In this document: in pieces, positions 3,955 through 45,469 of the stretch
Position numbering within the stretch: the first letter of the stretch is position 1
How the letters are laid out: every line of letters starts with the position of its first letter
Assembly: GCF_028641065.1 (NCBI RefSeq)
Contig: NC_073380.1
Coordinates: 92,504,001 to 92,568,000, forward strand
Source: Leucoraja erinacea
Lineage: Eukaryota
Reading direction: 5' to 3'
DNA: 64,000 bases
Notes under the pieces: model-generated
The model's input: the letters and a program-made list of their open reading frames with translations, nothing else
What the model was told of the DNA's origin: nothing
Databases searched by the model: none
Position numbers and translations under genes: made by a program

Positions 3955-4112
3955 TAACATTCACAGAAATATTCTTAATATATTCTTACCTGGAACTTTG
4001 ACTTTAATGACCATGACCATCTGAACTTCTTTCTCTCTTTATCTCTCTTTCTCACCATCTATCTTTCCATGTATCTACAGTATCTATGTATATCATAGCA
4101 AATATCAATCCA

Positions 4113-4230
4113 TACTGAAGGATCCCAACCCAAAGCATGTCCTGTCTATTCAGTCCCCAGATGCTGACCCATTGAGTTCCTCCAGCATTTTCAATTACAA
4201 GATTCCAGCATCTGTAGTTCATTGTGTTTC
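4113..4230 (+). mobile_element. degenerate Penelope-type short repeat
   Basis: ctgaagg..ccc..aaa..cagatgctg..tgagttcctccagcattt..ccagcatctgtagtt, same layout as the intact copies. Confidence 0.6.
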
Positions 4231-4388
4231 CTGCCTACACACCTATCTATTAATTTACTCATCAATCTATTCATAAATATCCTTTTATATACTTTTCAAT
4301 ATCCATCTTTAATATATAGGAATTGGTCATTTTCAAACACAGGAACCCCCACTTTCATCTTTCATGTAGATTATAACTAAATGGATAT

Positions 4389-4800
4389 CATAAGATCGTG
4401 TGATAGGAGTAGAAATAGGCCATTCCACCCATCAAGTCTACTCCGCCATTCAATCATCGATGATCTCTAGCCCATCCTCCTGCCTTCCCCCCATAACTTC
4501 TGACACCAGTACTAATGAAGAATCTACCTAACTCTTTCTTAAATATATCCACTGACTTTGCCTCCACTGCTTTCTGTGGCAAAGAATTCCACAGATTCAC
4601 CACCCTCTAACTAAAGAAATTCCTCCTCATCTTCCTATGAGAACGTCCTTTAATTCTGATTATATGACCTCTAGTCCTAGACTCTCCCTCTAGTGGAAAC
4701 ATCCTCTCCACATCAAGTCAAGTCGTCAAGTCAAGTCCAAGCCTTTCACTATTCTGTAGGTTTCAATGAGGCCCCCACTGCATCAAATGCTCATCATATG
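4389..4800 (-). mobile_element. CR1 3' fragment
   Basis: ttctgtggcaaagaattccacagattcaccac, the reverse of the RVVNLWNSLP-encoding region, plus 3' UTR. Confidence 0.8.
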
Positions 4801-5059
4801 CTACTCCTGTTACAAACCCCTCAATTACTTTACCTGAAAAGGTTACAATGGGTTGAATGGCTTTCCCTGTATTGTAAATGTTCTATGATTCCATACATTA
4901 ATACCAGGTTTAACACATTTTATCGGTATTGTCAGAATTTCCAGATTTCGATAGATTTCTTTTGCATGACAAAGTAACTGTCTCTGCCATAAGAAGTAAA
5001 GTTTGACCAAAAAGGCATGAATATGTTACATTAAAAGTACTTCATAGGCGATTGAAACA

Positions 5060-5470
5060 TGCATCGAACAATACAACACAGGAACAGGTGCTTTGGCTTC
5101 CAATTTCTGCACCAAACATGATGCCAAGTCAACCTTTATCTACCTGCACACAATCTATGTTCCTCCATTCCTTGCATTTCTATGTGCTTATCCAAAAATC
5201 TCTTAAATGCCACTTTGGAATCTGCCTCCACCACCATCCCAGGCATTCCATTCCAGGCACTCACCACCCTCTGTGTAAACAATTGCCCTACACATCACCT
5301 TTAAACTTTGACCCTCTCACCTTAAAGCTCTGCCCTGTAGTATTTGATATTTCCCATTCTGGAACAAAAGGTACTGACTGTCTACCTTATCTATCCCTCT
5401 CATAATTTTATATGCATCTATCGGATCTCCCCACAACATCCGGCATTCCAGAGGAAACAATCCAAGCCTC
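5060..5470 (-). mobile_element. older CR1 3' fragment
   Basis: ORF 5317-5511 contains LGLFPLECRMLWGDPIDAYKIMRGIDKVD (CR1 ORF2 C-terminus). Confidence 0.75.
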
Positions 5471-5618
5471 CAGGATAAACCTGAGATCGCTAGTGCCTCC
5501 TCTTGAAGCAAGGATGAATTGCAAGGAGCGGCCTGAGATCACAATGTCTCCTCCTTCGAAGACCAGGACTTAGCTTCTGGGACAAGCCACTGCACATGTA
5601 CCTAGGCAGTGAGGGACA

Positions 5619-5632
5619 GCGCCCCCTTGTGG
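5619..5632 (-). promoter_or_regulatory. candidate CTCF site
   Basis: minus strand CCACAAGGGGGCGC, one mismatch to the CCASYAGRKGGCRS core; motif only. Confidence 0.4.
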
Positions 5633-5729
5633 TCCTGCAATTTCTTCCCACTGTAAATAAAATATATACATGAGTTCACACAACTGCAAGTATCAGTGTA
5701 GTCACTGCAAAACCCAGCGCCATCCCCAA

Positions 5730-5890
5730 CGCTCCACCATCTATCACTTGCAGGCTTTGTCCTGCCCCCACATCTTTCCTCCCCCCTTGTACAATCAGTC
5801 TGAAGAAGAGTCCTGACCCGAACAATCACCTATCCATTCCCTCCACAGATTTTGCCTGGTCTGCTGAGTTACCTCAGCACTCTGTGTTTC
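5730..5890 (+). mobile_element. Penelope-type repeat with degenerate hammerhead and extra 5' sequence
   Basis: caatcagtctgaagaagagtcctgacccgaac...tgctgagttac. Confidence 0.65.
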
Positions 5891-5954
5891 ACAGTCAACT
5901 CAATGAGTAAATTTATGAGGTTTATGAGGAAAACATTTATGAGGAAAAAAAAGG

Positions 5955-6317
5955 TGGTTGGACAGGCTAGATGCAGGAAGATTGTTCCCGATGTTGGGGA
6001 AGTCCAGAACAAGGGGTCTCAGTTTAAGGATAAGGTGGAAGTCTTTTAGGAATGAGATGAGAAAAACATTTTTTACACAGAGAGTGGTGAATCTCTGGAA
6101 TTCTCTGCCACAGAATGTAGTTGAGGCCAGTTCATTGGCTATATTTAAGAGGGAGTTAGATGTGGCCCTTGTGAGTAAAGAGTTCAGGGGGTATGGAGAG
6201 AAGGCAGGTACAGGATACTGAGTTGGATGATCAACCATGATTATATTGAATGGCGGTGCAGGCTCGAAAGGCCGAATGGCCTGCTCCTGCACCTATTGTT
6301 TATTGTCTATTGTCTAT
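5955..6317 (+). mobile_element. CR1 (HER-type) 3' end
   Basis: ORF DRLDAGRLFPMLGKSRTRG...FFTQRVVNLWNSLP, 3' UTR and (tattgtc)n tail. Confidence 0.92.
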
Positions 6318-6750
6318 AATGTACCCCGAAAACTGATGTGCATCTATCGGTTGAATGTCTGAAAATATGTGCTCAGGTATAAAATTAAAACATAACCTGA
6401 CTAACTCAACCACACCCACTCTGAACATGACTCAACCTTGTGGACTTCATATTTTTCATGCCCGACCCTAGCCAGGCTGAGGACATTGGCAGAAAAACAA
6501 ACAAAGATACTTACACCGACATTCATTTTGATTAAGAACAGTGTGTTACAGTAATATGGAGCAAATCATCCAGGCCTGACCTGGATAAAATACAGAGCTG
6601 AGCCAATATGACTCAACCCCAAATTGGCTGCTTCGTCAGAATATACACTCAACCTGCCACGTACAGTTAAAACATGCCAGTCAGGCTCACCAGGCTTGGG
6701 CGAGTCTCTTAACACAGTTAGCAATATTTTCAGTTAACAGTAAATAAGAA

Positions 6751-6843
6751 GGTAGACAAAAATGCTGGAGAAACTCAGCGGGTGCAGCAGCATCTATGGA
6801 TCGAAGGAAATAGGCAACGTTTCGGGCCGAAACCCTTCTTCAG
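6751..6843 (-). mobile_element. Penelope-type hammerhead repeat with TSD
   Basis: minus strand ctgaagaagggtttcggcccgaaacgttgcc; 14-bp duplication acagtaaataagaa at 6737-6750 and 6844-6857. Confidence 0.85.
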
Positions 6844-7222
6844 ACAGTAAATAAGAACATGGTGCAGATTATTTAGTAGCTGGTATGAACATGATCCGGA
6901 ATCACTACCTCTCAATCCAAGGTGCTTCATTTCAGTTTCAGAAGTGAATTCCTCTGCCCTTGGAAGGGGAGATAAGGACTGGAGCGAAAAGCAAAACATC
7001 CTCACTCTGTTCTGGGTACTTGTGCACCCGTAATTGAGTTGTTCTCCAACCAGCCATGTAGGAGCAAGCAGCAATGAGTACAGAAATATAGTGCTTGTCA
7101 AATGTATTGTTTAGAGTTAACCAGTTTATTAACCCAACCTACATGCTGCACATTAATTACCAGAGAGATTCTTAAACTCTCTAATGCAAATAATCAGGTA
7201 TCTCCCCTTGGTAGACTTCTTC

Positions 7223-7351
7223 AGTCTGAAGAAGGGTCTTGAACCGAAACATTGCCTATATCTTTCCTTCCATAGATGCTGCCTCACCCGCTGAGTTTCT
7301 CCAGCATTTTTGTCTACCTTCGATTTTCCAGCAACTGCAGTTCCTTCTTAA
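7223..7351 (+). mobile_element. Penelope-type hammerhead repeat
   Basis: gtctgaagaagggtcttgaaccgaaacattgcc...ctgcagttccttcttaa; imperfect flanking duplication aggtatctccccttggta / aggtttctcccctttgta. Confidence 0.8.
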
Positions 7352-8480
7352 AGGTTTCTCCCCTTTGTATCTTGAGCAGTTTTTAGCCATTTCTTCAGCG
7401 ATTAACACCTCTGCCTTAAATCGTAATGAACAATATTGTTACAGTGATGTGTAGATAAACCCGATAGATTCAAATTCTGACACGCAGCTGTAAACAGAAT
7501 TGTGTTTTTGTTCATTTCCACTATCATTCTCAAAAACAATTTACAGAAAACACATTTAAGGATGTTTCTGTTTCTATCAGAGTTCTTGCTGCCAGACAGA
7601 TTGACTTGAAGCTATGCTTGTTGTAAATGTAGCTTTTTTTAATTCTTCATGTATGGCAATGTCCTCTTTAATTACACAGTCCTCATTATAACACACATAC
7701 CTTAATTCATTAAATATACTGAAATCACCCCGGTCAGTCAAGGAGGCACATTTACAAGCAGACTGCAGACTAAATCACAAGCATTGTTTGGACAAGGTTG
7801 TGAACACTGAGCATTAGGCCGTGGAATGTGAACAAATAATCAATTGTGCAGCCTAGAAATAAAGTGAGAAAGAACTGGCATTTATATGTCAGCTTTTACC
7901 ACATTCCAATGTATTTCCAAAGAATCATGCTGTGGTGGAAGGAAGTCACTGTTGTGATCTATAAGCTCATCCAAATGGATGGAAAATATATTTGTGACAA
8001 TTAAGGGGGTTGTTCCTGGTAATTTGGCCATGTTTTCTCTCTTAAGCAACACAGTGATAAAACAGATTACCAATGGTGAAATAAATGCAAGCATGAGGTC
8101 ATATGTTAGTAACTGCATTGGTGTGAATAGCTGAAAAGATCAGGATCAAGCACAAATGTGATGCAACCTCTGGATCAATGACCCAAAGAGGTTCAGTACC
8201 TACATTTGTGTATGAAGAATGGGTAACGTAAGAAGAATGTGTTCAAAGGGAACACAGTCCATAGGTAATCTCTGGAAGTGCATTCTGGAAAACTGCTTTC
8301 CGAATGGTTATCAGTGAAGAATAATAGCCAATAATCTGTTCCATTGCTTTCCATTGTTAGATTCCACTACAAAACAGCTGAAACATCTGGATTTAAATGC
8401 TTGCGAAAAAAATCTTCCAGAAAATGCCTGATTAAATGGAAATAATTGGTCTATTTGGGGAATAAATCCAGTAAACTGAC

Positions 8481-9127
8481 TAGAAACATAGAAAAATATT
8501 TAATAGAAAAATAGGTGCAGGAGTAGGCCATTCTCCAGCACTGGCATTCAATATGATCATGTCTGATCATCCAAAATCAGTTCCCTGTTCCTACTATTTT
8601 TCCCCATATCCTTTGATTCCGTTAGTCCTAAGAGCGAAATCTAACTCTTTTCTAAAACCATCCAGTGAATTGCCCTCCACTGCCTTCTGTGGCAGAGAAT
8701 TCCACAGATTCACAACTCTCTGGGTGAAAAAGTTTTTCCTCACCTAAGTCCTAAATGGCCTACCTCTTATTCTTAAACTGTGACCCCCTCGTTCTAGACT
8801 CCCCCAACATCGGGAATATTTTTCCTGCATCTAGCCTGTCCAATCCTATAAGAATTTTATATGTTTCTATAAGATCCTTCCAAATTCCAGTGAATATAAG
8901 CCCAGTCGACCCATTCTTTCATCATATGTCAGTCCCGCCATCCCGGGAACTAACCTGGTGAACCTAAGCTGCACTCTCTCAATAGCAAGAATGTCCTTCC
9001 TCAAATTAGGAAACCAAAACTGCACACAATACTACAGGTGGAGTCTCATGAGGGCCCTGTACAACTGCAGTAGGACCTGCTTGCTCCTATACTAAAATCC
9101 TCGCGCTATGGCCAACATGCCATTTGC
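8481..9127 (-). mobile_element. CR1 (HER-type) 3' fragment
   Basis: tagaaacatagaaaa tail and about 600 bp similar to 31912-32560. Confidence 0.88.
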
Positions 9128-9549
9128 TTGACTACTTGAAAGAGTCTCCAATGAGTGAAATGCATTTGCTTGGAAGGATGGGATTAGTACAGCACCATAT
9201 CGAGAGAATATTGGCATTGCTTGGGAAACAATGCTTAATATTGGATTGGCAGAATTCTTTCATATTATTTTTAATCTTGTTTCTATTTGTGGATGGTTGC
9301 ATTGACTGGAACTGATGGACTCGTGCAAAATGCCCACTACCATCTCATAAAATCAACTATTTCAGGAAATGCATCAGCTATGCCTGACGTATGAATGCAC
9401 ATAGCCATTAGGGGAAATAAAAAAAATACATAAAGAAAATAACCTGTAAAAACTAATTATCTGAACAATATTATTTTCTTGCATTTAATCTGCTACCCAT
9501 ACAAGCAATGACTTAACAAAGATTGATCTGATTGTTACTTGATTAGAAT

Positions 9550-9860
9550 TACAGAGAGTTACAGCAAAGAAATAGGTCTCTTAGCTTATTCACTCCAACC
9601 ATCCATTACACTGATCCTACGATTAATCCAGTTTATTTATATTCTTCCTAAATTCTCATTTATCTCCCCGCTCCCCCCTAGAATCTACCACTTACCTACC
9701 TTCTAGGAGTAATGTATTCCAACTATTTGGGCTGTGGGAGGAAATCGAAGAACCTGGAATAAACACAGGCAGTCATATGGAGAACATGCAAACTCCTCTT
9801 AGATGTCAAGAATTGAAATTATCTCTCTGGAACTGTGAGGCATCGGATCCACACCACGCT
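9550..9860 (-). mobile_element. degenerate HE1-like SINE
   Basis: tgtgggaggaaatcgaagaacctgga...ggagaacatgcaaactcc, the reverse of the HE1 central domain. Confidence 0.6.
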
Positions 9861-10639
9861 GTCAAGATTCTTCTCGACAACAGAATTGTTTGGACAAAAC
9901 AATATTCATTATCAGTGTCAAATGTTACAATTAGCATCAGAGTAAAGAGTTTGCAATTAATTTTAAATTACTTTATATTCATTCTGCAGAGGATTTACAA
10001 AATATAATTAGGTACTATGTCTAGAGTTTACATCCTTATCACCTAATTTAGCCCTAAATGATGTACTTCATGTTTTTACACCAGGAACCATTTGCTTTCA
10101 GAGATTACATTAATAAATGGTTAGATTAGTTTACATTACACATCATTCTGCAAACAGTTTAGAATTTATTTATTTAGTTTTGAAAACATTTCTGTAATTT
10201 CAGTCTTTAGATATGTTTCTTATTTTCCCACATGGGCGGAACTCGTCTAATTTCCATGTTTGGATGACAGCCTTATCTACCAGTTCTGTAGGCATGTCTG
10301 GTACTAACCGCTGTTGCCATTCACTGTAAAATGGTGAGAAAGTGCGAGGCCTGGAAAGACATCACCTACAAATTCATCGTGTTCATCCACTTCAGAAGTG
10401 AGGATTGTTGGTCAGTTGGGAGGCAAGGTCTAATACATATTTTTTCTTCATTTTTTTCTAATTTCTCAATATTTGTGGGTGCTTCTTTGAGCTAGAATTG
10501 ATGCAATGTTGTAACATCCATTGGTTGACCTAGGAAATACATCTGCCATGTGTCGATGCACAATTTCAGCAGAAAGATCCTATGAAACATAAGAAGTCAC
10601 CCAATAGCATGCAAATAGCACCCAAAGAGATATGTCTTA

Positions 10640-10875
10640 CTATATAGCATTAAACCTATCCAACATATTTCACAGACAATGAAGTACTTCTGGCTGTTAT
10701 AGAAGTACAACTATGTTGTGATACTATTACAACACAGAAAGTCCATGTTGTATCTGGCAAACTCTCACCCACGGCAGTGTACGATCAGAAGATCCGTTTC
10801 AATGATGTTCGTTAGAGGGAATTGTATTTTTCACCTGAATCGTGCAGTACACAAAGACCATCTCATAAAGCAGTG
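10640..10875 (-). mobile_element. ancient Deu-domain-like SINE relic
   Basis: cacagacaatgaagtactt...gatcagaagatccgtttcaatgatgtt resembles the reverse of the SacSINE1/AmnSINE1 3' region, recognised from memory. Confidence 0.45.
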
Positions 10876-11244
10876 GTGAGTGTCTTGAACGTTGGTTTAT
10901 TCAAAGCCGTAAAAGTATATATTTGGAAATGCTGAGATTTTTAAATGCTCAGTATTTAGAAATTTGAAAACAACAGTTTCAAAGGGTTCACAGCCCCCAC
11001 ACCCTCTTATGTTCTGTATTTCAATGGTTACAGGTGGATTATCATTTCTGAAATAATGCATCAACGTTTCTTTGTAATCATTCAATCTTGTTTTTTTCTC
11101 TCTTATAGTAACCTTTAACTTTCTGTTTCCTTGTAATTAATTAGGAAAACATCCTCCTATTTGCCCGACATGTGGGTGTAATAAAGAACCCTTCTTATCT
11201 CATGATTAGCTTTATTGCCCTCAGCCTGGTTTACAACATTCTAC

Positions 11245-11358
11245 ATAGAAACAAGGAACTGCAGAAGGAGACAACGTGGTGGTGTAACTCAGCAGGTTAG
11301 GCAGCGTCTCTGTAGAACGCGGAGAGGTGGCCTTTCAGGTCAAAAATCCTCTTCAGAC
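11245..11358 (-). mobile_element. degenerate Penelope-type repeat
   Basis: aaggaactgcaga...taactcagcagg..ggcagc..tctctg...ctcttcagac. Confidence 0.7.
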
Positions 11359-11426
11359 ATGCTTCTTCATCTTAATACTGCATTTTAGCAAGATATTATG
11401 TTAATTGCTCTTAAGAGATAACCAGC

Positions 11427-11458
11427 CTGAAGAAGGGTCTTGACCCGAAACGTCACCC
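11427..11458 (+). ncRNA. minimal type I hammerhead ribozyme motif
   Basis: CUGAAGA (11427-33), extra A, stem II GGGU-CUUG-ACCC, GAAA (11447-50), CG, UC; predicted cleavage after 11454; stem I is weak in this genomic context. Confidence 0.65.
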
Positions 11459-11520
11459 ATTCCTTCTCTCCAGAGATGCTGCCTGGCCTGCTGAGTTACT
11501 CCAGCATCTTGTGTCTACCT
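11427..11520 (+). mobile_element. Penelope-type repeat with intact minimal hammerhead core
   Basis: ctgaagaagggtcttgacccgaaacgtcacccattccttctctccagagatgctgcc. Confidence 0.85.
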
Positions 11521-11834
11521 ACTAGTTAATACAAGATAAATTGAAAAACATTTCAAACTCATATTGCCACTCCAACCACCCCAAAGCACTAATTTGTTAT
11601 ATATGACATAGCATATAAAATGGTAATGCTAAGGACAATGATGTCATAGTCTTGAACTTCAGCCCAACAAAGTTATAATGAATATTGATATTGTAAATAT
11701 ACCAATATTGTTTAACTGAACTGATTGCTCAAAAGGCTAAACATTTACATGTCTTGCATTCTCTGATAATATATTAACTTCTGTGTTCAGTAAGAAGTCA
11801 AACCCCCAAATACTACTACACATTAGCACTGCAC

Positions 11835-11926
11835 AGAACACAGTGCTGGACTAACGCAACAAGTCAGGCAGTATCTCTGGAAGGTATGAATAGGCGATGT
11901 TTCGAATTGGGACACTTCTTCAGACT
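11835..11926 (-). mobile_element. degenerate Penelope-type repeat
   Basis: tcaggcagtatctctggaaggtatgaataggcgatgtttcg..gggacacttcttcagact. Confidence 0.7.
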
Positions 11927-11974
11927 GGAGTAGAATTCTGACCAGCTGCATCTCTGTCTGGTTTGGGGACAGTA

Positions 11975-12390
11975 AAGCCTCCGACTGGAAGTCGTGCAGA
12001 GAGTGGTGAGGACAGCTGAAAAAATCATCGGGACTTCTCTCCCCTCAATCGGGGACATTGCGAGCAAACGTTGCTTGTCTAAGGCCAACAGTATTATAAA
12101 GGACCCCACACATCTCCATCATAGACTGTTCATTCTGCTGCCCTCGGGCAAAAGATATCGTAGCATAAGGAGCAGAATGGCCACATTTTACAACAGCTTC
12201 TTCCCACGAGCCATCAGACTCTTGAATGCAGTGTAATGGGCCGCCACCATTATCTATTTTTATCTTTTTATCCATTTTATCCTTCTCTTATTTTTGTGTT
12301 GCACGGGGAGCCAGATGCAACAAAATTTTGTTTAGAATTGCATTTATTGATGTATTTCTCAATGACAATAAAGTTTTGATTGATTGAATG
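11975..12390 (+). mobile_element. Rex1/Babar LINE 3' end
   Basis: ORF QRVVRTAEKIIGTSLPSI..IIKDPTH..LLPSGKRYRSI..NSFFPRAIRLLN; tail tgacaataaa + (ttga)n. Confidence 0.88.
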
Positions 12391-12469
12391 AGTAGTTTTA
12401 AAATGCCTTTACTTTAGCTCAATGCTAGCTGCAATCTTTAAGATGTCATACATTAATGCATCTACAGCG

Positions 12470-13120
12470 AGGTGTGGGGAAGGGGGGGTGGCAAAGGGGA
12501 AGTGTGGAGAAGGGAGGATGTGGAGGAAGGGATGGGGGAAGGGGGGGGGGGAAGGGTGTGTAGGGGAAGGAGGGGTGTGGGGAAAAAGGGGTGAGGGGGA
12601 AGGGGGGGGGTGTGGGAGGGAGGGGGAAAGGGGGGTGTGAAGGAGGGGGGTGGTCGCAGCAGACACAATTCGCACTCTGCTCACCCCGCACCTTCAGCTT
12701 TCGGCCTCATGCAGTAGCTCCCGGTCCCACTCCAACTTCACTCAGAGGCTTCCGGTTCAACAGCTCCCGGCTTGTCATACTGGTCGCTACAGAAGCTGCC
12801 CGCATGCTGCTCATGGACTCAGCCCCGCCTCTGCGGTTTTTTTCTCCTCGCCCCAGTGATTGACGTCCAGTACCAGAAGGGGCGTTGCCTTCATGGTGAA
12901 TGACAGGCGAGAAAACCAATCTGCTGATCTCACAATTTTTTAAACCTTCATAACTTTTGTAATATTCCACCGATCTGAACAAAACTTGGTGCACATGGAG
13001 CAGAGGAGAATGGTGAGTAAGGTGGCAAAAGTCCAAACGATATAGGGTACTGTTTTTGTGCAAATTTTTAAAAAACAGAAACCGGAAGAGGACAAGATGA
13101 GAGTTTTAGTAATAGTATAG
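12470..13120 (-). mobile_element. probable non-autonomous Helitron-like element, 5' part
   Basis: minus strand begins TCTATACTATTACTAAAA next to a (TC/TA)-rich microsatellite; internal C-rich low-complexity tract; 3' hairpin/CTAG end not found. Confidence 0.5.
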
Positions 13121-13781
13121 AGAAGAGATATAGAGAAGAGATAGGGATAGAGAAGATAGATAGAAGATTGTACTAATAGTAAAAGGTACAGCCTGTAATA
13201 CTTTACCAAATGTCATATGATCTTTTGGAATATAGATGGTCTTGCTAATTTTTATGCAAGGAAGTTTTGCATCTTCTATGACTCAAGTCCACAAAGAATT
13301 TAATGTGACTTTGGCCATGGAGTTCCATGCAAATTGACATCCACACACATGTGAAAGAGGGTTCCTAGCAAAGCAGAACTCTGGAATTTCCCACCCAACA
13401 TCACCACGGGAACACATTCATCATTCAGAAAGACAACTCGCCACCAGCCTCTCAAGCACAATTTAGGGACAACTATAAAAAAATGGTTTGACATTAATAT
13501 TTCCATCCAGCTAAAAAAAATAATCTAATTTATACTTGGCTCCCTGACTTCTCAGCTGATATCTAGAAGGTACCTGTTGTTAGATTCCAGCATAAGGGAG
13601 CTTTAGGATATGTAAAATCTCTAAGAGTTTCACTGGTGAAACATATATAATAAAATGGTGCCTGCTTTACAAATAACGGTGCTCAGGAGTCTGATTGCTT
13701 CTGAACCTAAGGCCCTTCACTGAGAGCTCATGTTTTATATAGAGAGGCTATGGGTTGAGGGGAGGATGTGAGCCCAGTTCT

Positions 13782-13795
13782 CCACCAGATGGCAG
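13782..13795 (+). promoter_or_regulatory. candidate CTCF site
   Basis: CCACCAGATGGCAG matches the CCASYAGRKGGCRS core exactly, in apparently unique sequence; motif only. Confidence 0.5.
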
Positions 13796-13901
13796 AGGTT
13801 CAAACTAATCTTGAATAATGACACTTTTAATCTCCTAAATACTGTGGGAAATATAGAGGCAGAGATCACAAGATCCGTGTGTGTCATCAGCACCCCCCCC
13901 C

Positions 13902-13932
<31 letters not shown>

Positions 13933-14349
13933 ACCACACACACCTTTCTGCCGCCACCAACCTGTCCTTTTTAAAGACCAGTGGCTGGCTAATAATGGCT
14001 GGGGTTTGTCAGGGAAATGTTGAAGTAAATGCAGACGCGGGGCAGTTGCTCTTGCCTCTACGTCAAGTGCCTCCTCGGGAGATATTGACGAGTTCTGAAA
14101 CTTGACCAGTTCCGCAGATTCCGGGAAGTTACTTGTGCACCAAACTGGAGACTGACACTCCAGCACGATGCAAACAAACGCTGCACTTTGCAGGACACAT
14201 TTGTCTGCAGTATCATTGCATGTACTTGCTTTCAAGAAGAGTAAGTGACCTATTCCTGGTGAGCTCTGTTTCTGTATTGTAGGGCTCTACAACTCTATGG
14301 ATTTAAGAATTGGAGGGGATTATTATGATTTCAGTGATTGGGCCAATTA

Positions 14350-14475
14350 CTGAAGGGTTTCAGCCCGAAACCTTGCCTATTTCCTTTGCTCCATAGATGC
14401 TGCCTCGCCCGCTGAGTTTCTCCAGCATTTTATTCTACCTTCGATTTTCCAGCATCTGCAGTTCCTTCTGAAACA
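14350..14475 (+). mobile_element. Penelope-type repeat
   Basis: ctgaagggtttcagcccgaaaccttgcctatttcc...gcatctgcagttccttc. Confidence 0.8.
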
Positions 14476-14679
14476 ACCTGTCGACAGGAGATTGTTTGAG
14501 TGTTGCCCTCTCTACGATACTATACAATACAATAGAACTTTATTTATCCCAGGAGGGAAATTGGTGCCACCCATGGTGCCACTGATTTAAACACTCAAAA
14601 TGCTGATATCATTAAACATCGAGTGCACATATTTCAAGGGCATAAAAACACAAAAAAGGTTGTATCTCAAATTAGATTA

Positions 14680-15050
14680 GGATCTGGAAAGGGTACGGAG
14701 AAGATTTATAAGGGTGATGCCAGGATTCAAGGGCCTGAGCTCTAGGTTCAATAGTTCAATACTTCTTTATTTGTCACATATGCAACCGCACAGTGAAATT
14801 TCTTTTGCAAATATTACAGATGCAAGCGCCGCCATTTTTGGTGCCCTTGTTCAAAATCCAATATCTGGTCAGCCCACGTGCTCAATGTACTGGAGCAGTG
14901 CCCGTAAACTGGTGTCCCTCTCCTCTCCTGGCCTGGCCACATTTGTGTCCCGGAGGCACAAGGATGGAGGTAGGGAGCGGTAGGGAGAGGGAGAGGTTGA
15001 GCAAGCTGGAAATTTATTCTTTGGAGCGCAGGAGGATGAGGGGTGATCTT
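14680..15050 (+). mobile_element. CR1 fragment interrupted by a minus-strand short element with a Rex1-type tail (about 14745-14985)
   Basis: CR1 text cctgagct|...|tagggagaggttgagc; LEIYSLERRRMRGDL; the insert has tttatttgtcacat and a (gttcaata)n tail. Confidence 0.6.
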
Positions 15051-15133
15051 GTTCTTGGTTTCTTGGTCCTCCAAAATATTTCAAATGGAATTTAAACTGG
15101 AGGTGGTGAAGGGAGGGATTAAGCCAGAAAGGG

Positions 15134-15875
15134 TTATTGGGAAGAAAGAGCTACTTTAAATTTAGTTACATCTGGTTGGGTAACTATAGTTGGGTGGAGA
15201 TTATTCCATGCTTTAATTGTGCGGGGGAAGAACAAATTGCTGTACACATCTGTCTTTGTAGCTGGGATCACAAATTGGATCGAATGCCCTCGTCTGCTCT
15301 TAATTGGTTTGGGTTTGGTGTCTGGTGTAGATCTTGTAATTTTATGCACCACATATCTGGAACAAGCTCCCAGAAAACTGCAGGTCTGCTGCAACTCTCA
15401 GCTCTTTTAAATCTAGACTGAAGACTTTTCTGTTTGTCGCTGCCTTTCAGTAAACAATACAATTTATTAATTACCTATACTGCACTGTAACTTCTATTCC
15501 TGGTTTTATTCTATTTTAAATATTTTTTTTGATTGCTTTTAATTTTGTAATTATTTTATCTGTATAATCTAATAATTGTTTTACATCTAAATGTCATTTT
15601 ATATGTGTTTCTTTCCAATGCTTTTAATGTTTTATGTAAAGCACTTTGAATTACCTTGTTGATGAAAGGTGCTATACAAATAAACTTGTCTTGCCTTGCC
15701 TTGCCTATGTCGAGCTGACCATTTAACATTTTGTAAAAACAGGTCAAACGGTGAGCTTCACGTCTGTCTTGGAGAGGGTTCCACCCCAGAGATTTCAGAA
15801 GTTTGGTGACACTCACTTCTCTCTCATAGGTGTTAGTAACAAATCGAGCTGCCTGTCTTTGGACACATTCGATGG
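15134..15875 (-). mobile_element. invertebrate-like CR1-group LINE 3' fragments, split by an L2-like tail (about 15480-15705, +)
   Basis: IECVQRQAARFVTNTY..SVTKLLKSLGWNPLQDRR..RL..FYK and FFPRTIKAWNNL; the insert ends gtgctatacaaataaa + (cttgc)n. Confidence 0.75.
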
Positions 15876-15879
15876 AAGA

Positions 15880-16207
15880 AATCTTATAGTGGTGCACAAA
15901 ATCACGAGAGGGATAGATTGGGTCAATGCACAGTAATTTGCCCAGAGTAGGCAAATCAAGAAGCAGAAGACATAGATTTAAGGTGAAGGAGGAAAGAGTT
16001 AATAGGAACCTGATGGGTAACTTTTTTAGACAAAGGGTGGTGGGTGTATGGAATGAGCTGCCAGGGGAGGTATTTGAATCATGTACCGTCACAATGTTTT
16101 GAGAAAAATGTAGACAGGCACACGGATAGAACAGATTTAGAGGAGATGAGGCATGTTGGTCGGCATGGGCAAATTGGGCTGACTTTAGATAGTTTTTATG
16201 ACTCTAT
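15880..16207 (+). mobile_element. older CR1 3' end
   Basis: agaagacatagatttaaggtgaagg...caaagggtggtgggtgtatggaatgagctgcca; tail tatgactctat. Confidence 0.75.
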
Positions 16208-16504
16208 CTGTCAGTGACAACAGCTGTACATTGCTGTTAACTTTCTCATTATTTTAGAGGTAGCTCAGTTAATGAAATATATCTGAAAGGGATTGGAATT
16301 TTTACAAGACGCTAAGATAATTAGGACATATTCCAAGATCCACTTGGAGGATGATTGAGCTTTTTAAATGAATGGTGTTCTAATATGTGAATTGGAAATC
16401 CAATGGGGTTTTTTTAAATGTTGGGCTAAAAATCAGTTCTGAATGCAGGTTACAATTTACCAGGCTAATTATCTTCTGCCAGCGTGCCCAAATCCAAAAC
16501 ATTC

Positions 16505-16680
16505 ACAGATGCTAAAAATCTAAAACATAAACAGAAAATGCTGGAAATAATCAGCAGATTAGACTGACCCGAAATGTTGACTCCGTTTCCCTTCCCACCG
16601 ATGCGGCCTGCCCTGTTGGGAATTTCCCTCCATAGATGCTGCCTGACCCACTGAGTATTTCAACACTTTGTGTTTTATTC
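16505..16680. mobile_element. degenerate inverted/tandem Penelope-type repeat cluster
   Basis: minus piece cagatgct..aaatgctggaa followed by plus pieces gacccgaaatgttgac and catagatgctgcctgacccactgagt. Confidence 0.6.
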
Positions 16681-17604
16681 TGTTTTTGTCGTGCCACATA
16701 TGGTGCATAGTTTTTAATTCTTAGAGGCAATTAGGTTAAATGCCGGCAAATGGGATCATGAGAAAACTAACCACCAATTTTAGTACAGATGTTGTCACTG
16801 AGAGACTTAGATGGCCATCTTGATTGCCATGGACAAATTGGTTCAAAGGGCTTGTGTCCATTCCGTATGACTCTTTGACTCAATTTGGTTGTATGTGCAG
16901 GGGGAGGATGGGTGTATTGGCCCAAGACAAACCAGAGGGGGATACACTAAGAATTCACTGGGTAGAGAGCAATCATGTAATTACAACATAATGAAAATTA
17001 TATTTCAAAGTTGCAACACTGGTTGCCATCACAAGAGAGTGAGAAGGTTACAGCTTTTGCAATCCCACCCCAACCCAACTCCTGATTCATTCAATTGCCT
17101 GCCAGTCACAGGGTAAGGCCAATTTCCTACCCATCCACACACCAACAGCCCACCAGTTCCGCTCACTCACGGAGCGAACCTGAAATTGCGTCCTGCCTCC
17201 GTCCTGGCACTGGGTTCAGGTGGGCAGCTGGAAATCCATTTGGCATTATCCCTTGATTAATGAGCCACCAAAATAATCATCAGTTGACATTCAATTCTAT
17301 GCTCTCATTAGAAATCATTTTGATTGATTGTTTAAGATGAAAACATTTGGATCAGCACTGCCTACTGTACTGATGGCAGCAGATTATGTGCTAACATTTA
17401 AAGGGGAATTAAACAAAATCAAAATAGAAATCCTTTATTTACAGAGCTAATGGAAAGTGCAGTGGAACGAACTATAATGAAGAGCTCCTTCCAAAACAAA
17501 ATAGGTATAATGGGCGGAATTCCTTCTTCTTTGCTAAACCAGTCCATAATTAGACTCCATTTCATACACAATCATTTTTGTGCATTAAGTCCACAAGAAG
17601 GGTC

Positions 17605-18010
17605 TCGATTGAGGGGGGATCTTGTAGAAACTTACAAAATTCTTAACGGGTTGGGCAGGCTAGATGCAGGAAGATTGGTCCCGATGTTGGGGAAGTCCAG
17701 AACAAGGGGTCACAGTTTAAGGATAAGGGGGTAGTCTTTTAGGACCGAGATGAGAAAATCATTTTTTACACAGAGTGGTGAATCTGTGGAATTCTCTGCC
17801 ACAAAAGGTAGTTGAGGCCAGTTCATTGGCTGGATTTAAGAGGGAGTTAGATGTGGCCTTTGTGGCTAAAGGGATCAGGGGGTATGGAGAGAAGGCAGGT
17901 ATGGGATATTGATTTGGATGATCAGCCATGATCATATTGAATGGCGGTGCAAGCTCAAAGGGCCGAATGGCCTACTCCTGCATCTATTTTCTATGTTTCT
18001 ATGTTTCTAT
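17605..18010 (+). mobile_element. CR1 (HER-type) 3' end, followed by a Penelope-type repeat (18011-18113)
   Basis: RLRGDLVETYKILNGLGRLDAGR..GKSRTRGHSLRIRG; (tatgtttc)n tail. Confidence 0.92.
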
Positions 18011-19564
18011 GACCTGAAACGTCACCTATTCCTTTTCTCCAGAGATGCTGCCCGACCCACTGAGTTAACACAATTTTGTGTCTATCTTTGGTGTAAACCA
18101 GCATCTGCAGTTCATAGAAACATAGAAAATAGGTGCAGGAATAGGCCATTATGCCCTTCCTACACACGTTTGGAATAAAATATCTGAGGGTGAAGCAAAA
18201 ATATTATCACAGCACCTGTCAGGGTGTCCTGCATACAATTGGCACCAGGTCTCATCTGATACTTGATGAGATGTTGATCGCCCTTTAACTGGGAACCTCG
18301 GTGTAACATTTCCTCCTCAGAAGGGTATTTTCATTAAAGCCCCTGCGATGTGCATTGAAGAAGAAAAAAAAATCTATTACATTTAACATAACCTTTTAAA
18401 ATCCATCCAGGAGTGAACATTATTGCAGCTGGATACATGGTTAACTTGGCTGCTTTACAGTCTGTATTAACTGCCAAGTAATATGAAATTCAAGTCAATG
18501 TTTTAGCTGCATTTTCCAGGTAATTAATCCTCTGGATAATAGATGTTTCTGGGTTTCTCCAGTTCATGGGCAGGCAACGCCTGAAACAACTAAACACTGA
18601 CGGAGTGCCAAAAAAACCCCAACGTGGATCAGGAGCCCAGCCACTATTCTGCACCTGAGAAACAAAAGTGTTCAGGCATGCGTGGTAAAGAAAGAGAGAG
18701 AAAAGGCAGGGCTCGTTATCTGGATTACCTCAATCGCCAACAAAAAGGGCACAAGGAACTGGCAGAATAATAATGGAAAAATGTAAAATCAGATTGCGCT
18801 CTGTGAGTTGCTCCCTTGTGCATTGATGTATGGCCAGTAAAACGTGCTGGGGTTAGTGTGCACACGGAGGTCACAAAGTTGCTGATTGCCAGGTAGGTTT
18901 TCATGTCCCCATGTTGTCAAGCAATCTGTGCCTTCATAAAATTACCCATAAAACATTCATGGAGGTGGATTAGGTTTTAAAATCTACCTAATGTAGCATG
19001 AAATTCTGACTTCATGCTCCAGTGATCAGAGCTGCAAGAGCTGACCTATTTTCTCACTCTGCAATCACAATATTCCATCTTTACCCTTTTCAACTGTTTC
19101 CTTCTAAAGATTAAGACCATAAGAGATCATAATTTCCTCCGCCTTTCATTATGCAGCTTGGTCAGACTAGACTGTTACATTACTCATGCAATTTAGTTTG
19201 CTCACTAGTGCCTTGACATTTGATGAAATTGAAATTTCAATACATATTCAACTACAGGGACATATATAGATTGAAAATAGCTGCCGTTTCATTTACGAAC
19301 AATATAATTAAAATAAATACTGGCTGTAACCCTTACAGATATTATTTTCACAATGTTTCTCTATGTTTATACATATTTATACACACACACACACCCACAC
19401 ACACACATATGCACAAAAACAGAGAATTGATAGATGTAGAAATAGACCCATGTACCACCAAAAATGTTGATTTAAATTTCACTGCACATTTTTATTTATC
19501 CACTTTTTGTCCATGGCTAGTTATTACACTATCTGAACTGGGAAGTAAGAAGTCTTCTTGAACA

Positions 19565-19659
19565 GGAAGGTACACAAAAATGCTGGAGAATCTCAGCGGG
19601 CGCAGCAGCATCTATGGAGCGAAGGAGATAGGCAACGTTTCGGGCCAAAACCCTTCTTC
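19565..19659 (-). mobile_element. Penelope-type hammerhead repeat with TSD
   Basis: 14-bp duplication agtcttcttgaaca at 19551-19564 and 19660-19673; minus strand ctgaagaagggttttggcccgaaacgttg. Confidence 0.85.
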
Positions 19660-19859
19660 AGTCTTCTTGAACATATCTGTGAGGTGAAGGTACGTTCATG
19701 TTGCTGTTGGGGACGGAGTTCCAGGACTTGGCTCCTAGATAATGAGGAAATTATGGATATTTTTCCAAATCGGAATAACGGGTCATTTGAAGATATGTTT
19801 ATAAATTCACACTTATGTCTTGTGATTACAATTTTATGTGCCTGGATGTGGTAACGGAG

Positions 19860-19968
19860 GGGTGTGTGCATATATGTGTGAGCACACATGATTGTGAGTA
19901 TGTGTGCATGTGATGTACGTGGGGTTATGGTCATGTGTGTGTGTGTGTGTGCGTGTGCATGTTTGTAT
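19860..19968. repeat. (TG)n-rich microsatellite
   Basis: direct inspection. Confidence 0.85.
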
Positions 19969-20759
19969 GCTATATTTAGGATGCTAGTGTGGCAAGTGTA
20001 TTGTATTAATCACTATCATGTACATGTCCACAAGCAGAGGTGAAGGATCTTCAATGTTATTTCAGAACTCAATTCAATAGCCTCGACTTATATGATTGTC
20101 CAGCCAAGGCTTTAGAATTGCAATAGAAGTTAAATAAAATAGTGACATGATGTTACTGCTCATGCATCTTCACAATTTTTTCCTAAAAGATTGCTTTTGA
20201 TTTCTGGTACCAACACTCACTGACCCATTCCTCACTTTATGTCAAGAGGATTATAAAAATAGATGCTAAACCCGCAACATTTGTTCAAAGGCAAAAATGG
20301 GAGATACAATCTGGATAAAATTCACAGCTTGAACTAAATTCGGCATTGCTAGAAATTCAAGTCTCCTACAATGCTTCTGTTTCTTTAATTCACTGAAAAT
20401 GCTTCCATTGTAAATGGTTGCATTCAAAAAAGAATGTTTTAAATTGGAGTTCATCCTCTTTTGGCTCAATAAACAGATTTAAGACTAACACCCACGTATT
20501 TGCACAACAGTTCAGAAATTGGACAATGAGATCTCCAAAGTTTCTTCCATTACATTTCCATGTAACATTAAAAATCTTAAAACATCACTGCAGCCCTTTG
20601 AACATGAAGTGCATAATTTGCTAGTTCTGGGAAGACTTTGTACTTTAACCCCAAAACCTCAAATTTCAAAGGTACATTGTAATCCTCTGATACCACTACA
20701 GTAAATCCCCAATAATCTAATATCCAATTATTTGGAAATCTACACTTCTGCCTGACACC

Positions 20760-20942
20760 AAACTCACCAGACGCAGCTTGCGTTCTCTTTAAGATCACCA
20801 GCTTCTGTTTCTTGCAATCCCTATAAACTCACCAGGTTCTGATTTCCACTCACTTTAATCTCACCAGGTTCTGTTTCCTGCTCTTTTGGAACACACTATA
20901 TTTTATATCCTGTTCCCATTAAACTCACCAGATTCTGTTTCC
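20760..20942. repeat. degenerate tandem repeat, about 32-bp period
   Basis: five recurrences of (aaac)tcaccag..ttctg.ttc. Confidence 0.65.
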
Positions 20943-21553
20943 GAGATTATATCCAATCCATGTGAGGAAACATGATGGAAGGAAATGGGATTCACCTAAT
21001 TTGGTGGCAATTGTAGCTCAGATGGTCACAGGCTTGACTCCGATTCTGGCTGTGGCTCCAAGTCCCATCCCAATGATAGGAACACAGAAAATTAGACTCA
21101 CACCACAGGACAATGCTGATGTAGTGCTTCACCATTGGAAGTGTCTTCCCCCAAATGATAAATGATAGGCCATTCAGACTTTCAAACCTGTCTGGCATTC
21201 AATAAGATCGCAATTGATATTCTACATCCATCCATCTGTAGACACTAATCCCATATTTTCCCATTCATTTAATATACAGAAATTCATAAATGTAAGTTCT
21301 AAATACCGCTATTAACTGTGCCTTCACAGTCCTCTGAAGTAAAAATTTAAAAGATTCATCACCTCTGAATGAAGAAACTTCTAAAAGGCTTACCCCTTAT
21401 TTTGAGAGCGTGATCATATGCCAAAGCTCCTCAGCTGCGGGAAACTCCCTTCCTGTATCATCCCTGTTCAATCCTGAGAGAATCCTGTATGTTTCACTGT
21501 TTAATTTTCTTCCTCCAAAGTCTAAAGGAGAGACCCCTCATCTATTTTGTCAC

Positions 21554-21703
21554 NNNNNNNNNNNNNNNNNNNNNNNNNNNNNNNNNNNNNNNNNNNNNNN
21601 NNNNNNNNNNNNNNNNNNNNNNNNNNNNNNNNNNNNNNNNNNNNNNNNNNNNNNNNNNNNNNNNNNNNNNNNNNNNNNNNNNNNNNNNNNNNNNNNNNNN
21701 NNN
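21554..21703. other. assembly gap (150 N)
   Basis: run of N. Confidence 1.
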
Positions 21704-21852
21704 TTCAGGATACTCAAGGCCACCTTACAGTTAAAACAAGCAAATTACAAATCTATAAATAAAATGAAATAAAAGCAATAATACATAATTCGGAGAGAGA
21801 GCAGCGGCAGCTAATCACGCCAGCGTTCACTCTCACTTCCGGCAGCCATCTT
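21704..21852 (-). mobile_element. short bipartite element (AAGATGGC head + L2-like tail), copy 1, cut by the gap
   Basis: gagagagcagcggcagctaa..cgccagcgt.cactctc.cttccg.cagccatctt is shared with 48117-48366. Confidence 0.7.
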
Positions 21853-21859
21853 TTAGTCA

Positions 21860-21898
21860 CAGCATTAAAGACGAATTTAACATAAAACATAAAAAACA

Positions 21899-21942
<44 letters not shown>

Positions 21943-22065
21943 TCCCACTGTGAGGGAAGGCAACAAAGTCCAGTCCTCTTCCTCTTGTTCACCCCGTGGT
22001 CGGGGCCTATTTGAGGCCTCCACAGTCGCCGCAACGGCAGCCCAATGTTACAGGCCCATTGTGGT
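21860..22065 (-). mobile_element. fragment of the GC-rich Rex1-tailed non-autonomous family
   Basis: cccactgtgagggaaggcaacaaagtc..ccgtggtcggggcc is shared with 41071-41330 and 44390-45255. Confidence 0.7.
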
Positions 22066-22145
22066 TGGTTGGTGCTTATTGTGTACAAAATGACTGCTGT
22101 ATTTTCAACATTACAACAGCAACTACACTTTGGGGAGTACTTTGA

Positions 22146-22278
22146 GTCTGAAGAAGGGTATCGACCCAAAATGTCATCTATTCCTTTTCTCCAGAGATGT
22201 TGTCTGACCCGCTGAGTTACTCCAACTTTTTGTGTCTATCTTCGGTTTAAACCAGCATCTGCAGTTCCTTCCTACACA
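22146..22278 (+). mobile_element. Penelope-type repeat
   Basis: gtctgaagaagggtatcgacccaaaatgtc...gcatctgcagttccttcctacaca. Confidence 0.8.
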
Positions 22279-22289
22279 CAACATATTTA

Positions 22290-22910
22290 CTTTCTTTGGC
22301 ATCTGAGAAGGTTCGGACCAAGGCTTTTTTCAAACCTGCATTATAGAAAGTATTCTGACGGGATGCATCTCAGCCTGTGGCAGCTGCTTTGTTCTTGACC
22401 ACTTGTACCTGCAGGGAGTGGTGAACACAGCCCTGTTCATCACAGGCTTATCACTTCTTTCCATTCAGACCATCATAACAGTGCATTGGATCAGGAAGGC
22501 TGTAAGTATTGTCAAGGATGTCTGCCACTCTGGCCATTCCTTTCTCTCTCTTCTATCTTCTAGGAGCAGATACAGGAGCTTGAAAGCTCGGACATCCGGA
22601 TTTAAGAATAGCTTTTTTCCCCCACTGCTATCAGATTCCTGAACCAATCATTTCTTTCATACCCACTTCCCAGAGGTTCTGTCACTTCTTATTCTTACTC
22701 TTTACCTCACTCGGTTATTCCATAATTGCACTTTAATATTTGCTTGCATTATTCAGATTTTGAACAACTATATTGCACCATTCAGCTATTTTACCATTTT
22801 CATTGTGTTTATTGTTGAGTTTATCATCACTGTATATGTACAGTTCACTCTGTGGGTTTCATGTACACCCTGGTGTATACGACAATAAACTAATCTGAAA
22901 CTGAATGTTT
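22290..22910 (+). mobile_element. degenerate Rex1/Babar 3' end
   Basis: IVKDVCHSGHSFLSLLSSRSRYRSLKARTSGFKNSFFP; gacaataaac tail. Confidence 0.75.
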
Positions 22911-22984
22911 TGAAACATTAATATGAAAGCAATTGGCATTGATGTCCCATTCTACATTGCTATGTAGCAGCACGGTGCCTCTTT

Positions 22985-23400
22985 GGGGTGGCACGATGGC
23001 GCAGTGGTAGAGTTGCTGCCATACAGTTCCAGACACCCGGGTTTGATCCCGACGACTGGTGCTGCCTATACGGAGTTTGTACATTCTCCCCGTGACCTGC
23101 ATGGGTTTTCTCTGGGAGCTCCGGTTTTCTCCCACACTCCAAAGGCATACAGGTTTGTAGTCTGAAGAAGGGTTTCGGCCCGAAACGTTGCCTATCTCCT
23201 TCACTCCATAGATGCTGCTGCACCCGCTGAGTTTCTCCAGCATTTTTGTGTACCTCAGGTTTGTAGGCTAATAGGTTTGGTAAAATTGTAAATTGACCCT
23301 AGTGTGTGTAGGTTAATGTTAGTGCGTGGGGGTCACAGGTTGACGTGGACTCGGTGGGCCGAAGGGCCTGTTTCCGCACAGTAACACTAAACTAAACTAT
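22985..23400 (+). mobile_element. HE1-like tRNA-derived SINE with nested Penelope-type insert
   Basis: A box tggcgcagtgg, B-box-like ggtttgatccc, central ggagtttgtacattctccccgtgacc, CR1-derived tail ggccgaagggcctgtttcc + (taaac)n. Confidence 0.88.
23161..23255 (+). mobile_element. Penelope-type hammerhead repeat inserted in HE1
   Basis: CUGAAGA (23162-68), A, GGGU-UUCG-GCCC, GAAAC, GUU; 11-bp TSD caggtttgtag at 23150-23160 and 23256-23266. Confidence 0.88.
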
Positions 23401-23509
23401 GAGATTTTCTACTAATATTCAAAGTTTTATTAGTCATAACAGTTTTCCTTTGATTCAACCTTATCAATGACCAGTATTGTTAGTTCTGATAGATGTAGAG
23501 GCATAGAGG

Positions 23510-24455
23510 TAAAGAGCCATAGTTACACAGCACCGAAACAGGCCCTTTAGCCCAACTTCTCCATGGTGAACTAGGTGTCTATCTGAGCTAGATATATTTC
23601 CCAGCATTTGTCCATATAACCATATAACCATATAACAATTACAGCACGGAAACAGGCCATCTCGGCCCTACAAGTCCGTGCCGAACAACTTTTTTTCCCC
23701 TTAGTCCCACCTGCCTGCACTCATACCATAACTCTCCATTCCCTTCTCATCCATATGCCTATCCAATTTATTTTTAAATGATACCAATGAACCTGCCTCC
23801 ACCACTTCCACTGGGAGCTCATTCCACACCGCTACCACTCTCTACGTAAAGAAGTTCCCCCTCATATTACCCCTAAACTTCTGTCCCTTAATTCTGAAGT
23901 CATGTCCTCTTGTTTGAATCTTCCCTATTCTCAAAGGGAAAAGCTTGTCCACATCAACTCTGTCTATCCCTCTCATCATTTTAAAAACCTCTATCAGGTC
24001 CCCCCTTAACCTTCTGCGCTCCAGAGAATAAAGACCTAACTTATTCAACCTATCTCTGTAACTTAGTTGTTGAAACCCAGGCCAATATCCCACTGATTCT
24101 TTTCTATCCATTTATCTGCCCATTTTTTTAAACATTACAATTGTATCAGCTTTTGCACCCTCCTCTGGCAGCTCATTCCATATACCCACCACCCTCTGTG
24201 TGAAAAACCTGCCCCCCTCAGATCCCTTTTACATCATTCCCCTCTCACCTTAAATCTCTGCCCTCTAGTTCCAGAGCTTGGAAAAAAAGATTGTGACCAT
24301 CTAACGTATCTACACCCTTCATGATTTTCTATAAGGTCACCCCTCAACCTCTTAACCAGCAAAAACAAGCTCAACCTATTCAGCCTCTCCATCTAACTCA
24401 AGCCCTCCAGTTCCAGTAACATATTTGTGAATATTTTCTGCACTCTTTCCAGCTT
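23510..24455 (-). mobile_element. old CR1 3' end with a younger CR1 nested at about 23617-24082
   Basis: ORF LSYRDRLNKLGLYSLERRRLRGDLIEVFKMMRGIDRVD; (aaccatat)n tail; the older copy resumes after about 24083. Confidence 0.85.
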
Positions 24456-31375: not shown

Positions 31376-31394
31376 CGATGATCTAGCCAGGTCA

Positions 31395-31910: not shown

Positions 31911-31911
31911 T

Positions 31912-35480: not shown

Positions 35481-35494
35481 AGTGGCCCTATCAT

Positions 35495-45255: not shown

Positions 45256-45469
45256 TAACCCAGTGGTAACTATTCATTTGGATCCTGTCAGGCAGGTTAT
45301 CCACAACCAAGGGTCCCTACCCGAAACTTCACCCATCCATATTTTCCAGAGATGCTGCCTGACCCGCTGAGATACACTAGCACTTTGTGTTATTTTGAGT
45401 AAACAAGCTTCTATAGTTCCTTGTTTCTACTTATCCACAAGCAATGATGTCCCAATTGCACACTGACTC

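Follow-up and report, generated by a model that had tools for sequence, protein, structure and literature searches.

Penelope-like elements (PLEs) carry minimal hammerhead ribozymes (min-HHRs) which, in the account of Cervera and de la Pena (2014), have an unpaired base between positions 9 and 10.1, a G10.1-C11.1 pair and a palindromic 15.2-16.2 (PMC4209133, available sections). Dispersed single min-HHRs derived from truncated PLEs have been in print since 2014, including examples from fish, coelacanth and frog, and no cartilaginous fish is named among the hosts in those sections of PMC4209133. The PLE arrangement given by Craig et al. (2021) typically includes an adjacent inverted 5'-truncated copy and an optional 30-40-bp tail at one end, and the role of the hammerhead in PLEs is described there as still open (PMC8557442, in the portions accessible). 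For PAc, a Poseidon element of Anolis carolinensis, Frangieh et al. (2024) report two start sites for reverse transcription with an optional 30-40-nt tail between them, one site lying 111-118 nt after the start of stem II; the main template is the uncleaved RNA, the ribozyme cuts only with protein present, and no RNA-seq reads end at the cut (PMC11167929, available portions). Tandem non-LTR retrozymes, proposed to derive from PLE pseudo-LTRs, have been described in one chondrichthyan by Li, Clavereau and Pollet (bioRxiv 10.64898/2026.07.22.740005, accessible part of the preprint), and Penelope is listed as present in the whale shark in the available part of PMC8455134.

The stretch of skate DNA analysed here (hereafter the window, 64,000 nucleotides in all) is animal DNA, rich in repeats and with broken LINEs, and it contains a repeat family that is real, abundant and recently mobile, with young subfamilies. 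We made an nhmmer profile from 11 window copies (these match it by construction) and obtained 25 matches across the 64 kb to one repeat of ~95-125 bp at E values up to 1, and 23 of these fell at E<0.001; the reversed window gave a single match, with E=1. A preliminary description, made from the letters alone, had proposed about 20 related repeats, and every one of its 20 listed positions is covered by these matches. Matches to the repeat body account for 1,964 of the 64,000 bases. At ~0.35 copies per kb, the family would amount to hundreds of thousands of copies per gigabase if the window is typical, and this density, extrapolated from one window, apparently far exceeds the 4,000-9,000 motifs given per genome for coelacanth and Xenopus (PMC4209133, available sections).

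The copy first noticed (11424-11520, plus strand) belongs to the GUC subfamily and has no 3' tail. Its minimal type I hammerhead motif runs from C3 to C17 at 11427-11454 on the same strand and comprises, in order, the core CUGAAGA, one additional A, a stem II of 4 bp capped by a 4-nt loop, then GAAA, CG and UC, so that the proposed reading CUGAAGA-A-stem II-GAAA-CG-UH is borne out by the letters. The predicted cut positions, after 11454 in this copy and after 23189 in the second copy named in the preliminary description, also agree with our own. A strict pattern, comprising a 4-bp stem II, pairing of 15.2 with 16.2 and the UH, is found four times in the window, whereas 200 shuffles gave it 0.005 times on average and at most once. 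Across the copies, 87.5% of stem II cells are paired, and the 10.1-11.1 pair is G-C in 14 of 16 cases and G-U in 2. The 15.2-16.2 positions form a decaying CpG and are paired in 9 of 19. All three PLE min-HHR features listed in the available sections of PMC4209133 are present in the skate repeat, which also shares with the ribozymes described there the core, the missing loop 3 and the occurrence mostly as lone, scattered motifs that fall into families. An additional A does follow A9, for which the preliminary description cited the CChMVd viroid as precedent; since an unpaired base after A9 is itself a listed feature of PLE min-HHRs (PMC4209133, in part), the viroid precedent is not needed. The helices differ in length, with a stem II of 4 bp and a stem I of ~2 bp here, compared with 7-8 and 4-5 bp in Schistosoma and a 2-bp helix I in D. 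virilis (same source, available sections). No hammerhead match came from Rfam, whether the window was searched at the gathering score or 4000-24000 at E values up to 5, which is unsurprising because the motif has no stem III.

Stem I had been described as mostly lost. In the two young copies folded it amounts to 2 bp adjoining the core, and in the copy at 11424 it is broken at 2.1. In each of the three copies folded, a competing hairpin that buries the core has a stability advantage of 5.6-6.6 kcal/mol over the hammerhead fold. With stem I reduced to 2 bp or broken, and with the competing hairpin predicted to be more stable, a lone copy is unlikely to cut. Global folding stability was unremarkable in seven folds (z from -1.16 to 0.74).

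To compare the copies we aligned 22 of the 25 matches, leaving out those at 16624, 48519 and 49072 as short or weak. Six of the 22 retain the 11 invariant core letters together with a permitted letter at position 17, and the majority of copies in the window are without the letters required by the ribozyme. Three young, tailless copies with intact cores belong to the GUU subfamily. One of these, at 23161-23255 on the plus strand, has its core at 23162-23189, lies within another SINE-like repeat and is bounded by an 11-bp duplication (23150-23160 and 23256-23266); the other two are on the minus strand, at 6751-6843 and 19565-19661, each with a 14-bp duplication (6737-6750 and 6844-6857; 19551-19564 and 19660-19673). 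A tailed GUU copy at 14350-14470 (plus) has a core incomplete at its 5' end, a fully tailed GUC copy at 22145-22277 (plus) has a mutated G12, and a GUC copy at 18010-18113 (plus) is truncated in loop 2 and keeps a partial tail. Among older copies, that at 11837-11926 (minus) retains the core letters with a damaged stem II, and that at 11250-11358 (minus, 3' limit approximate) has a partial tail and has lost U16.1. Old, decayed copies lie on the plus strand at 205-291, an nhmmer match, and, tailed and with approximate 3' limits, at 4116-4225 and 54511-54630. Three decayed pieces that match the profile, one of them inverted, form a cluster at 16490-16673; an old fragment at 49072-49125 (plus), likewise an nhmmer match, has no hammerhead; and a weak old fragment at 48519-48571 (minus, E=0.012) was missing from the preliminary list.

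Direct repeats of 11-18 bp scoring at least 11 flank 6 of the 25 matches, compared with 2 of 600 mismatched flank pairs; most copies, including the one at 11424, lack a clear target-site duplication. The right ends fall largely into two classes. In 6 of the 22 aligned copies the repeat stops sharply 86 nt after stem II begins and has no tail, and in 12 it continues into a tail of 32-36 nt, partial in some copies, that ends 118-122 nt after the start of stem II; the remaining 4 fit neither class. The same alternative was seen genome-wide in a bulk RNA run (X24), where the tail is common to 2,942 loose ends (agreement 0.75) but not to the 3,619 that lie at the next three positions (0.36-0.45). 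Tailed copies with duplications include a GUU copy at 7214-7351 (plus), which has the full tail, a 5' micro-inversion of ~10 bases and an 18-bp duplication with two mismatches (7196-7213 and 7352-7369), an older copy at 45311-45430 (plus) that starts just before stem II and has a 14-bp duplication with one mismatch, and a GUU copy at 54954-55048 (plus) that is truncated downstream of the cleavage site and has a 16-bp duplication with one mismatch. We also considered whether the tail might be a direct repeat of the last 30 bases of the body and rejected this, as 139 to 1,251 of 2,000 shuffles scored equally well.

Two insertions are head-to-head inverted pairs in which just one arm has the tail, and each pair as a unit is enclosed by a duplication. 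That at 49715-49910 is broken in stem II and has a perfect 15-bp duplication (49700-49714 and 49911-49925); that at 48721-48901, of the GUC subfamily, has a probable 12-bp duplication with one mismatch and a weaker score. Both match the PLE arrangement drawn by Craig et al. (2021; PMC8557442, accessible portions). Opposite-strand joints at 6835-6844 occur in all four sequencing runs with which the copy at 6751-6843 was compared (contigs of X1 and X12, bulk RNA of X24 and single-cell RNA of X22). The inversions lie at the hammerhead end of the repeat and the optional tail at the opposite end, which identifies the hammerhead strand as the sense strand.

The 5' ends show a regularity of their own. 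The duplication-bounded copies at 6751, 19565 and 23161 start within ~3 bases of C3, each sharing 2-3 letters with its target, and the micro-inversion of the copy at 7214 also breaks at the 5' edge of the ribozyme. Loose ends that run past this edge agree with one another over ~4 letters and then show an overall agreement of 0.34-0.37 in three runs; the single-cell run has mostly a C-rich tract there (0.56), resembling the stretch upstream of the copy at 5797. That copy (5735-5887, plus, 5' limit approximate), an older one, is the only one that apparently keeps a pyrimidine-rich stretch upstream of its hammerhead part. Because the loose-end agreement past the 5' edge is short, with the C-rich tract in the single-cell run, a longer form of the repeat probably exists as a minority. 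We weighed a splice acceptor, with a pyrimidine tract and CAG preceding stem I as D. virilis has, as the cause of the 5' boundary and set it aside: in the commonest loose ends the letters immediately upstream of that AG are retained, and this speaks against a spliced template.

Random 5' truncation fails to account for 5' ends that cluster at the ribozyme edge. The clustering could arise if reverse transcriptase (RT) stops at the fold, if it stops at the C-rich tract, or if the master element is short. It is conceivable, if on balance doubtful, that the family is a self-standing, PLE-borne SINE of ~95-125 nt, present in hundreds of thousands of copies in one vertebrate genome and bounded on its 5' side by the hammerhead, either since the fold or the competing hairpin stops RT or since a short master RNA starts there; the hammerhead would then serve as a structural copying boundary and not as a cutter. 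The clustering is in any event a testable lead on the role of the hammerhead in PLEs.

The preliminary description had divided the family into two subfamilies that keep stem II with different sequences. The subfamilies are real; the difference in stem II is one-sided (U-A in 11 copies, U-G in 5) and not compensatory. No compensatory covariation above shuffles was found in the window alignment, with 73 of 500 shuffles reaching the observed score. Within the ribozyme the subfamilies differ solely at tolerant places, namely loop 2, 11.4 (U-A or U-G), 17 (C or U) and 1.1 (A or G opposite U2.1). Consistent with this, those variants inside the hammerhead that are listed as present in at least 20% of the X24 reads fall only at these four places, 28 weaker entries standing outside that list and core positions near read ends being poorly covered.

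Comparison of the majority sequences of the two young subfamilies gave 0 differences at 13 core positions and 15 at 79 positions elsewhere (p=0.12). When each copy was compared with the majority of its subfamily, with damaged 5' ends trimmed by hand, core positions differed in 19 of 202 cases (9.4%) and other positions in 212 of 1,556 (13.6%, p=0.10); outside CpG the corresponding figures were 5 of 145 (3.4%) and 175 of 1,415 (12.4%, p=0.0005). Without trimming there was no difference between core and rest (pooled p=0.69), a count that includes flank bases of truncated copies, and hand-trimming biases the comparison in the opposite direction. Of the X24 reads, 14% have a change at the essential G12, a CpG site, and since it decays in this way the core bias likely reflects constraint on source elements, not on the dispersed copies.

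The four sequencing runs allowed us to view the family outside the window. Contigs matching the repeat numbered 85,299 in X1, the DNA run that best covers the locus, and 62,280 in X12, from another organism; summed contig depth was not taken as a copy number. One X12 contig crosses the site of the 6751 copy without the insertion, skipping 107 bases of which 14 fit either side, the 93-nt element plus its duplication. This empty site in a related organism indicates that the repeat is mobile and that it moved after the two organisms split. Matches to the repeat made up 14,836 of 12.9 million bulk reads (~0.12%) and 15,797 of 17.6 million single-cell reads (~0.09%). A strand excess in the single-cell run was disregarded, as oligo-dT priming on A-rich stretches could produce it. 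No RNA reads fell on the flanks of the 6751 copy in the portions of the two runs examined (5% and 1%), which is uninformative on whether the family is expressed from its own promoter. Two degenerate patterns of the repeat had no match in viral, metagenome or prokaryote genome contigs.

Endonuclease-bearing (EN+) PLEs have, between their pseudo-LTRs, an open reading frame for a telomerase-like RT and a GIY-YIG endonuclease, and we also looked in the window for such a PLE protein. Among 296 open frames of at least 62 aa, none matched the GIY-YIG family in Pfam; six had Pfam matches, all to RT or AP-endonuclease pieces, and none of these adjoins a repeat copy. A scan of all six frames for PLE protein motifs gave nothing convincing, and a protein search with the frame through body and tail produced four candidates, none of which scored. 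As the window holds no PLE protein, we infer the link to an autonomous partner, and class membership rests on the motif and the insertion anatomy.

Taken together, the motif, the duplications, the 5' inversions and the optional tail support the PLE-type minimal hammerhead reading of the preliminary description. Judged from these sequence features, the repeat is very probably a high-copy mobile element that bears a minimal hammerhead. It likely represents a PLE's 3' end (the pseudo-LTR with or without tail), and the RT and endonuclease of that PLE likely inserted it by target-primed reverse transcription, with uncleaved RNA as the template. In this scheme RT would begin at either of two sites, ~86 or 118-122 nt downstream of stem II, read through the hammerhead and in most cases halt at the hammerhead's 5' edge. 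Any action of the ribozyme would take place in the transcript of the source element, as a dimer or assisted by protein, and the dispersed copies would be passengers that decay. The source may be either a non-autonomous master of its own or a full-length PLE giving 5'-truncated products. PAc offers a close likeness in having two 3' ends that are separated by an optional tail and lie comparably far from stem II, in keeping an uncleaved hammerhead and in showing no RNA ends at the cut (PMC11167929, available portions). The PAc open reading frame starts at stem II (same portions), whereas the skate repeat has no start codon there and no such frame was found in the window.

Another way to account for the repeat is as a non-LTR retrozyme, in which transcripts of tandem arrays self-cleave as dimers, the monomers circularise and the circles are reverse-transcribed; the preliminary description had allowed for a retrozyme-like family. 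Non-LTR retrozymes with a proposed origin in PLE pseudo-LTRs are reported from one chondrichthyan, and the skate repeat resembles those of animals in being non-coding, in its type I hammerhead, in its kinship with PLE pseudo-LTRs and in its many monomers (bioRxiv 10.64898/2026.07.22.740005, accessible part). Head-to-tail joins of the 95-bp unit do exist, in 4 contigs of X1, 8 contigs of X12 and 2 reads of X24. However, the animal retrozymes are tandem units each with a complete hammerhead (same preprint, in part), whereas the skate copies occur as dispersed monomers or inverted pairs. No head-to-tail array is present among the 25 window matches, and the joins are a handful among the tens of thousands of matching contigs in X1 and X12. 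The cleavage site lies inside the copies, whose ends are fixed at places other than the cut and are not circularly permuted. Neither of the two raw-read RNA runs lists a place where many RNA molecules begin or end, although fragmented cDNA libraries are a weak test for such a pile-up. Given a cleavage site internal to the copies, few tandem dimers and no pile-up of RNA ends, we regard a rolling-circle retrozyme as improbable, and that part of the preliminary description is not supported. The repeat might instead be an ordinary SINE, for instance one derived from a tRNA and read from the opposite strand, that was moved by a LINE and in which the hammerhead-like letters are incidental. Its short length, very high copy number, 11-18 bp duplications and fairly fixed ends would all fit such a SINE, as would the LINE RT fragments common in the window and the absence of covariation. 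SINEs of tRNA origin have a tRNA-like head with Pol III boxes and a 3' end that comes from a LINE or is a simple repeat. Against this reading, ARAGORN finds no tRNA (a search insensitive to decayed heads), the ends carry no poly-A, microsatellite or simple repeat, and the inversions at the hammerhead end with the optional tail opposite fix the hammerhead strand as sense; moreover, all the min-HHR features occur together, and the four strict matches far exceed the number expected. An ordinary SINE is, on this evidence, very unlikely.

Finally, some copies could be working ribozymes used by the host to cut or destabilise the transcripts that contain them. The presence of the repeat in both RNA runs is compatible with such use, and so is the lower divergence of the core outside CpG after hand-trimming. 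However, the core bias is equally expected from constraint on source elements, and the essential G12 decays at a CpG-like rate. The short or broken stem I and the more stable competing hairpin in the three copies folded point the same way, and elsewhere monomeric min-HHRs did not cleave (PMC4209133, available sections), nor did 8 of 9 Xenopus dimers (bioRxiv 10.64898/2026.07.22.740005, accessible part). We therefore give host use the slightest chance of the explanations considered, and return to PLE-mediated insertion of uncleaved RNA as the preferred reading. The class is a known one, and the family is a further Penelope-type hammerhead repeat that may well be catalogued in Repbase or Dfam. 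Literature searches for Penelope in sharks, skates and Chondrichthyes found no published description of it, though Repbase, Dfam or preprint supplements may list the family; a 14-base motif of the repeat had no match in the literature, and neither the motif nor shark names occur in two of the three supplement files of PMC4209133 or in one supplement file of PMC8557442. The value of the family lies in its scale and anatomy, which provide many natural insertion junctions and presence/absence differences across species for studying PLE integration. In its two 3' ends, moreover, another vertebrate lineage shows the geometry that in vitro work revealed for the anole element.

Several smaller observations concern the window and its copies. 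Broken LINE pieces with RT or AP-endonuclease domains lie at 25312-26478, 31387-36105 and 61041-62424, and we take them to resemble RTE, CR1 and L2-type families. The window, which has an assembly gap of 150 N at 21554-21703, yielded no host-gene domain. The copy at 18010 is flanked by two inverted LINE-type 3' ends with short-period tails, which make a long hairpin at 17961-18155; a match of this hairpin to a plant microRNA model had a weak score and was taken as chance. Joints that go back 33-34 bases recur in all four sequencing runs at 6803-6839, where they link the two arms of the competing hairpin, and may be template switches or misplaced 5' micro-inversions. The copies at 4116, 14350 and 48813 apparently lack one core purine triplet at the 5' end, which destroys the core and could reflect slippage or 5' joining by microhomology. 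Lastly, the plus-strand copies at 23161 and 54954 were inserted independently at nearly the same position in the same kind of host SINE (23040-23400 and 54848-55175), and this shared position hints at a target preference.
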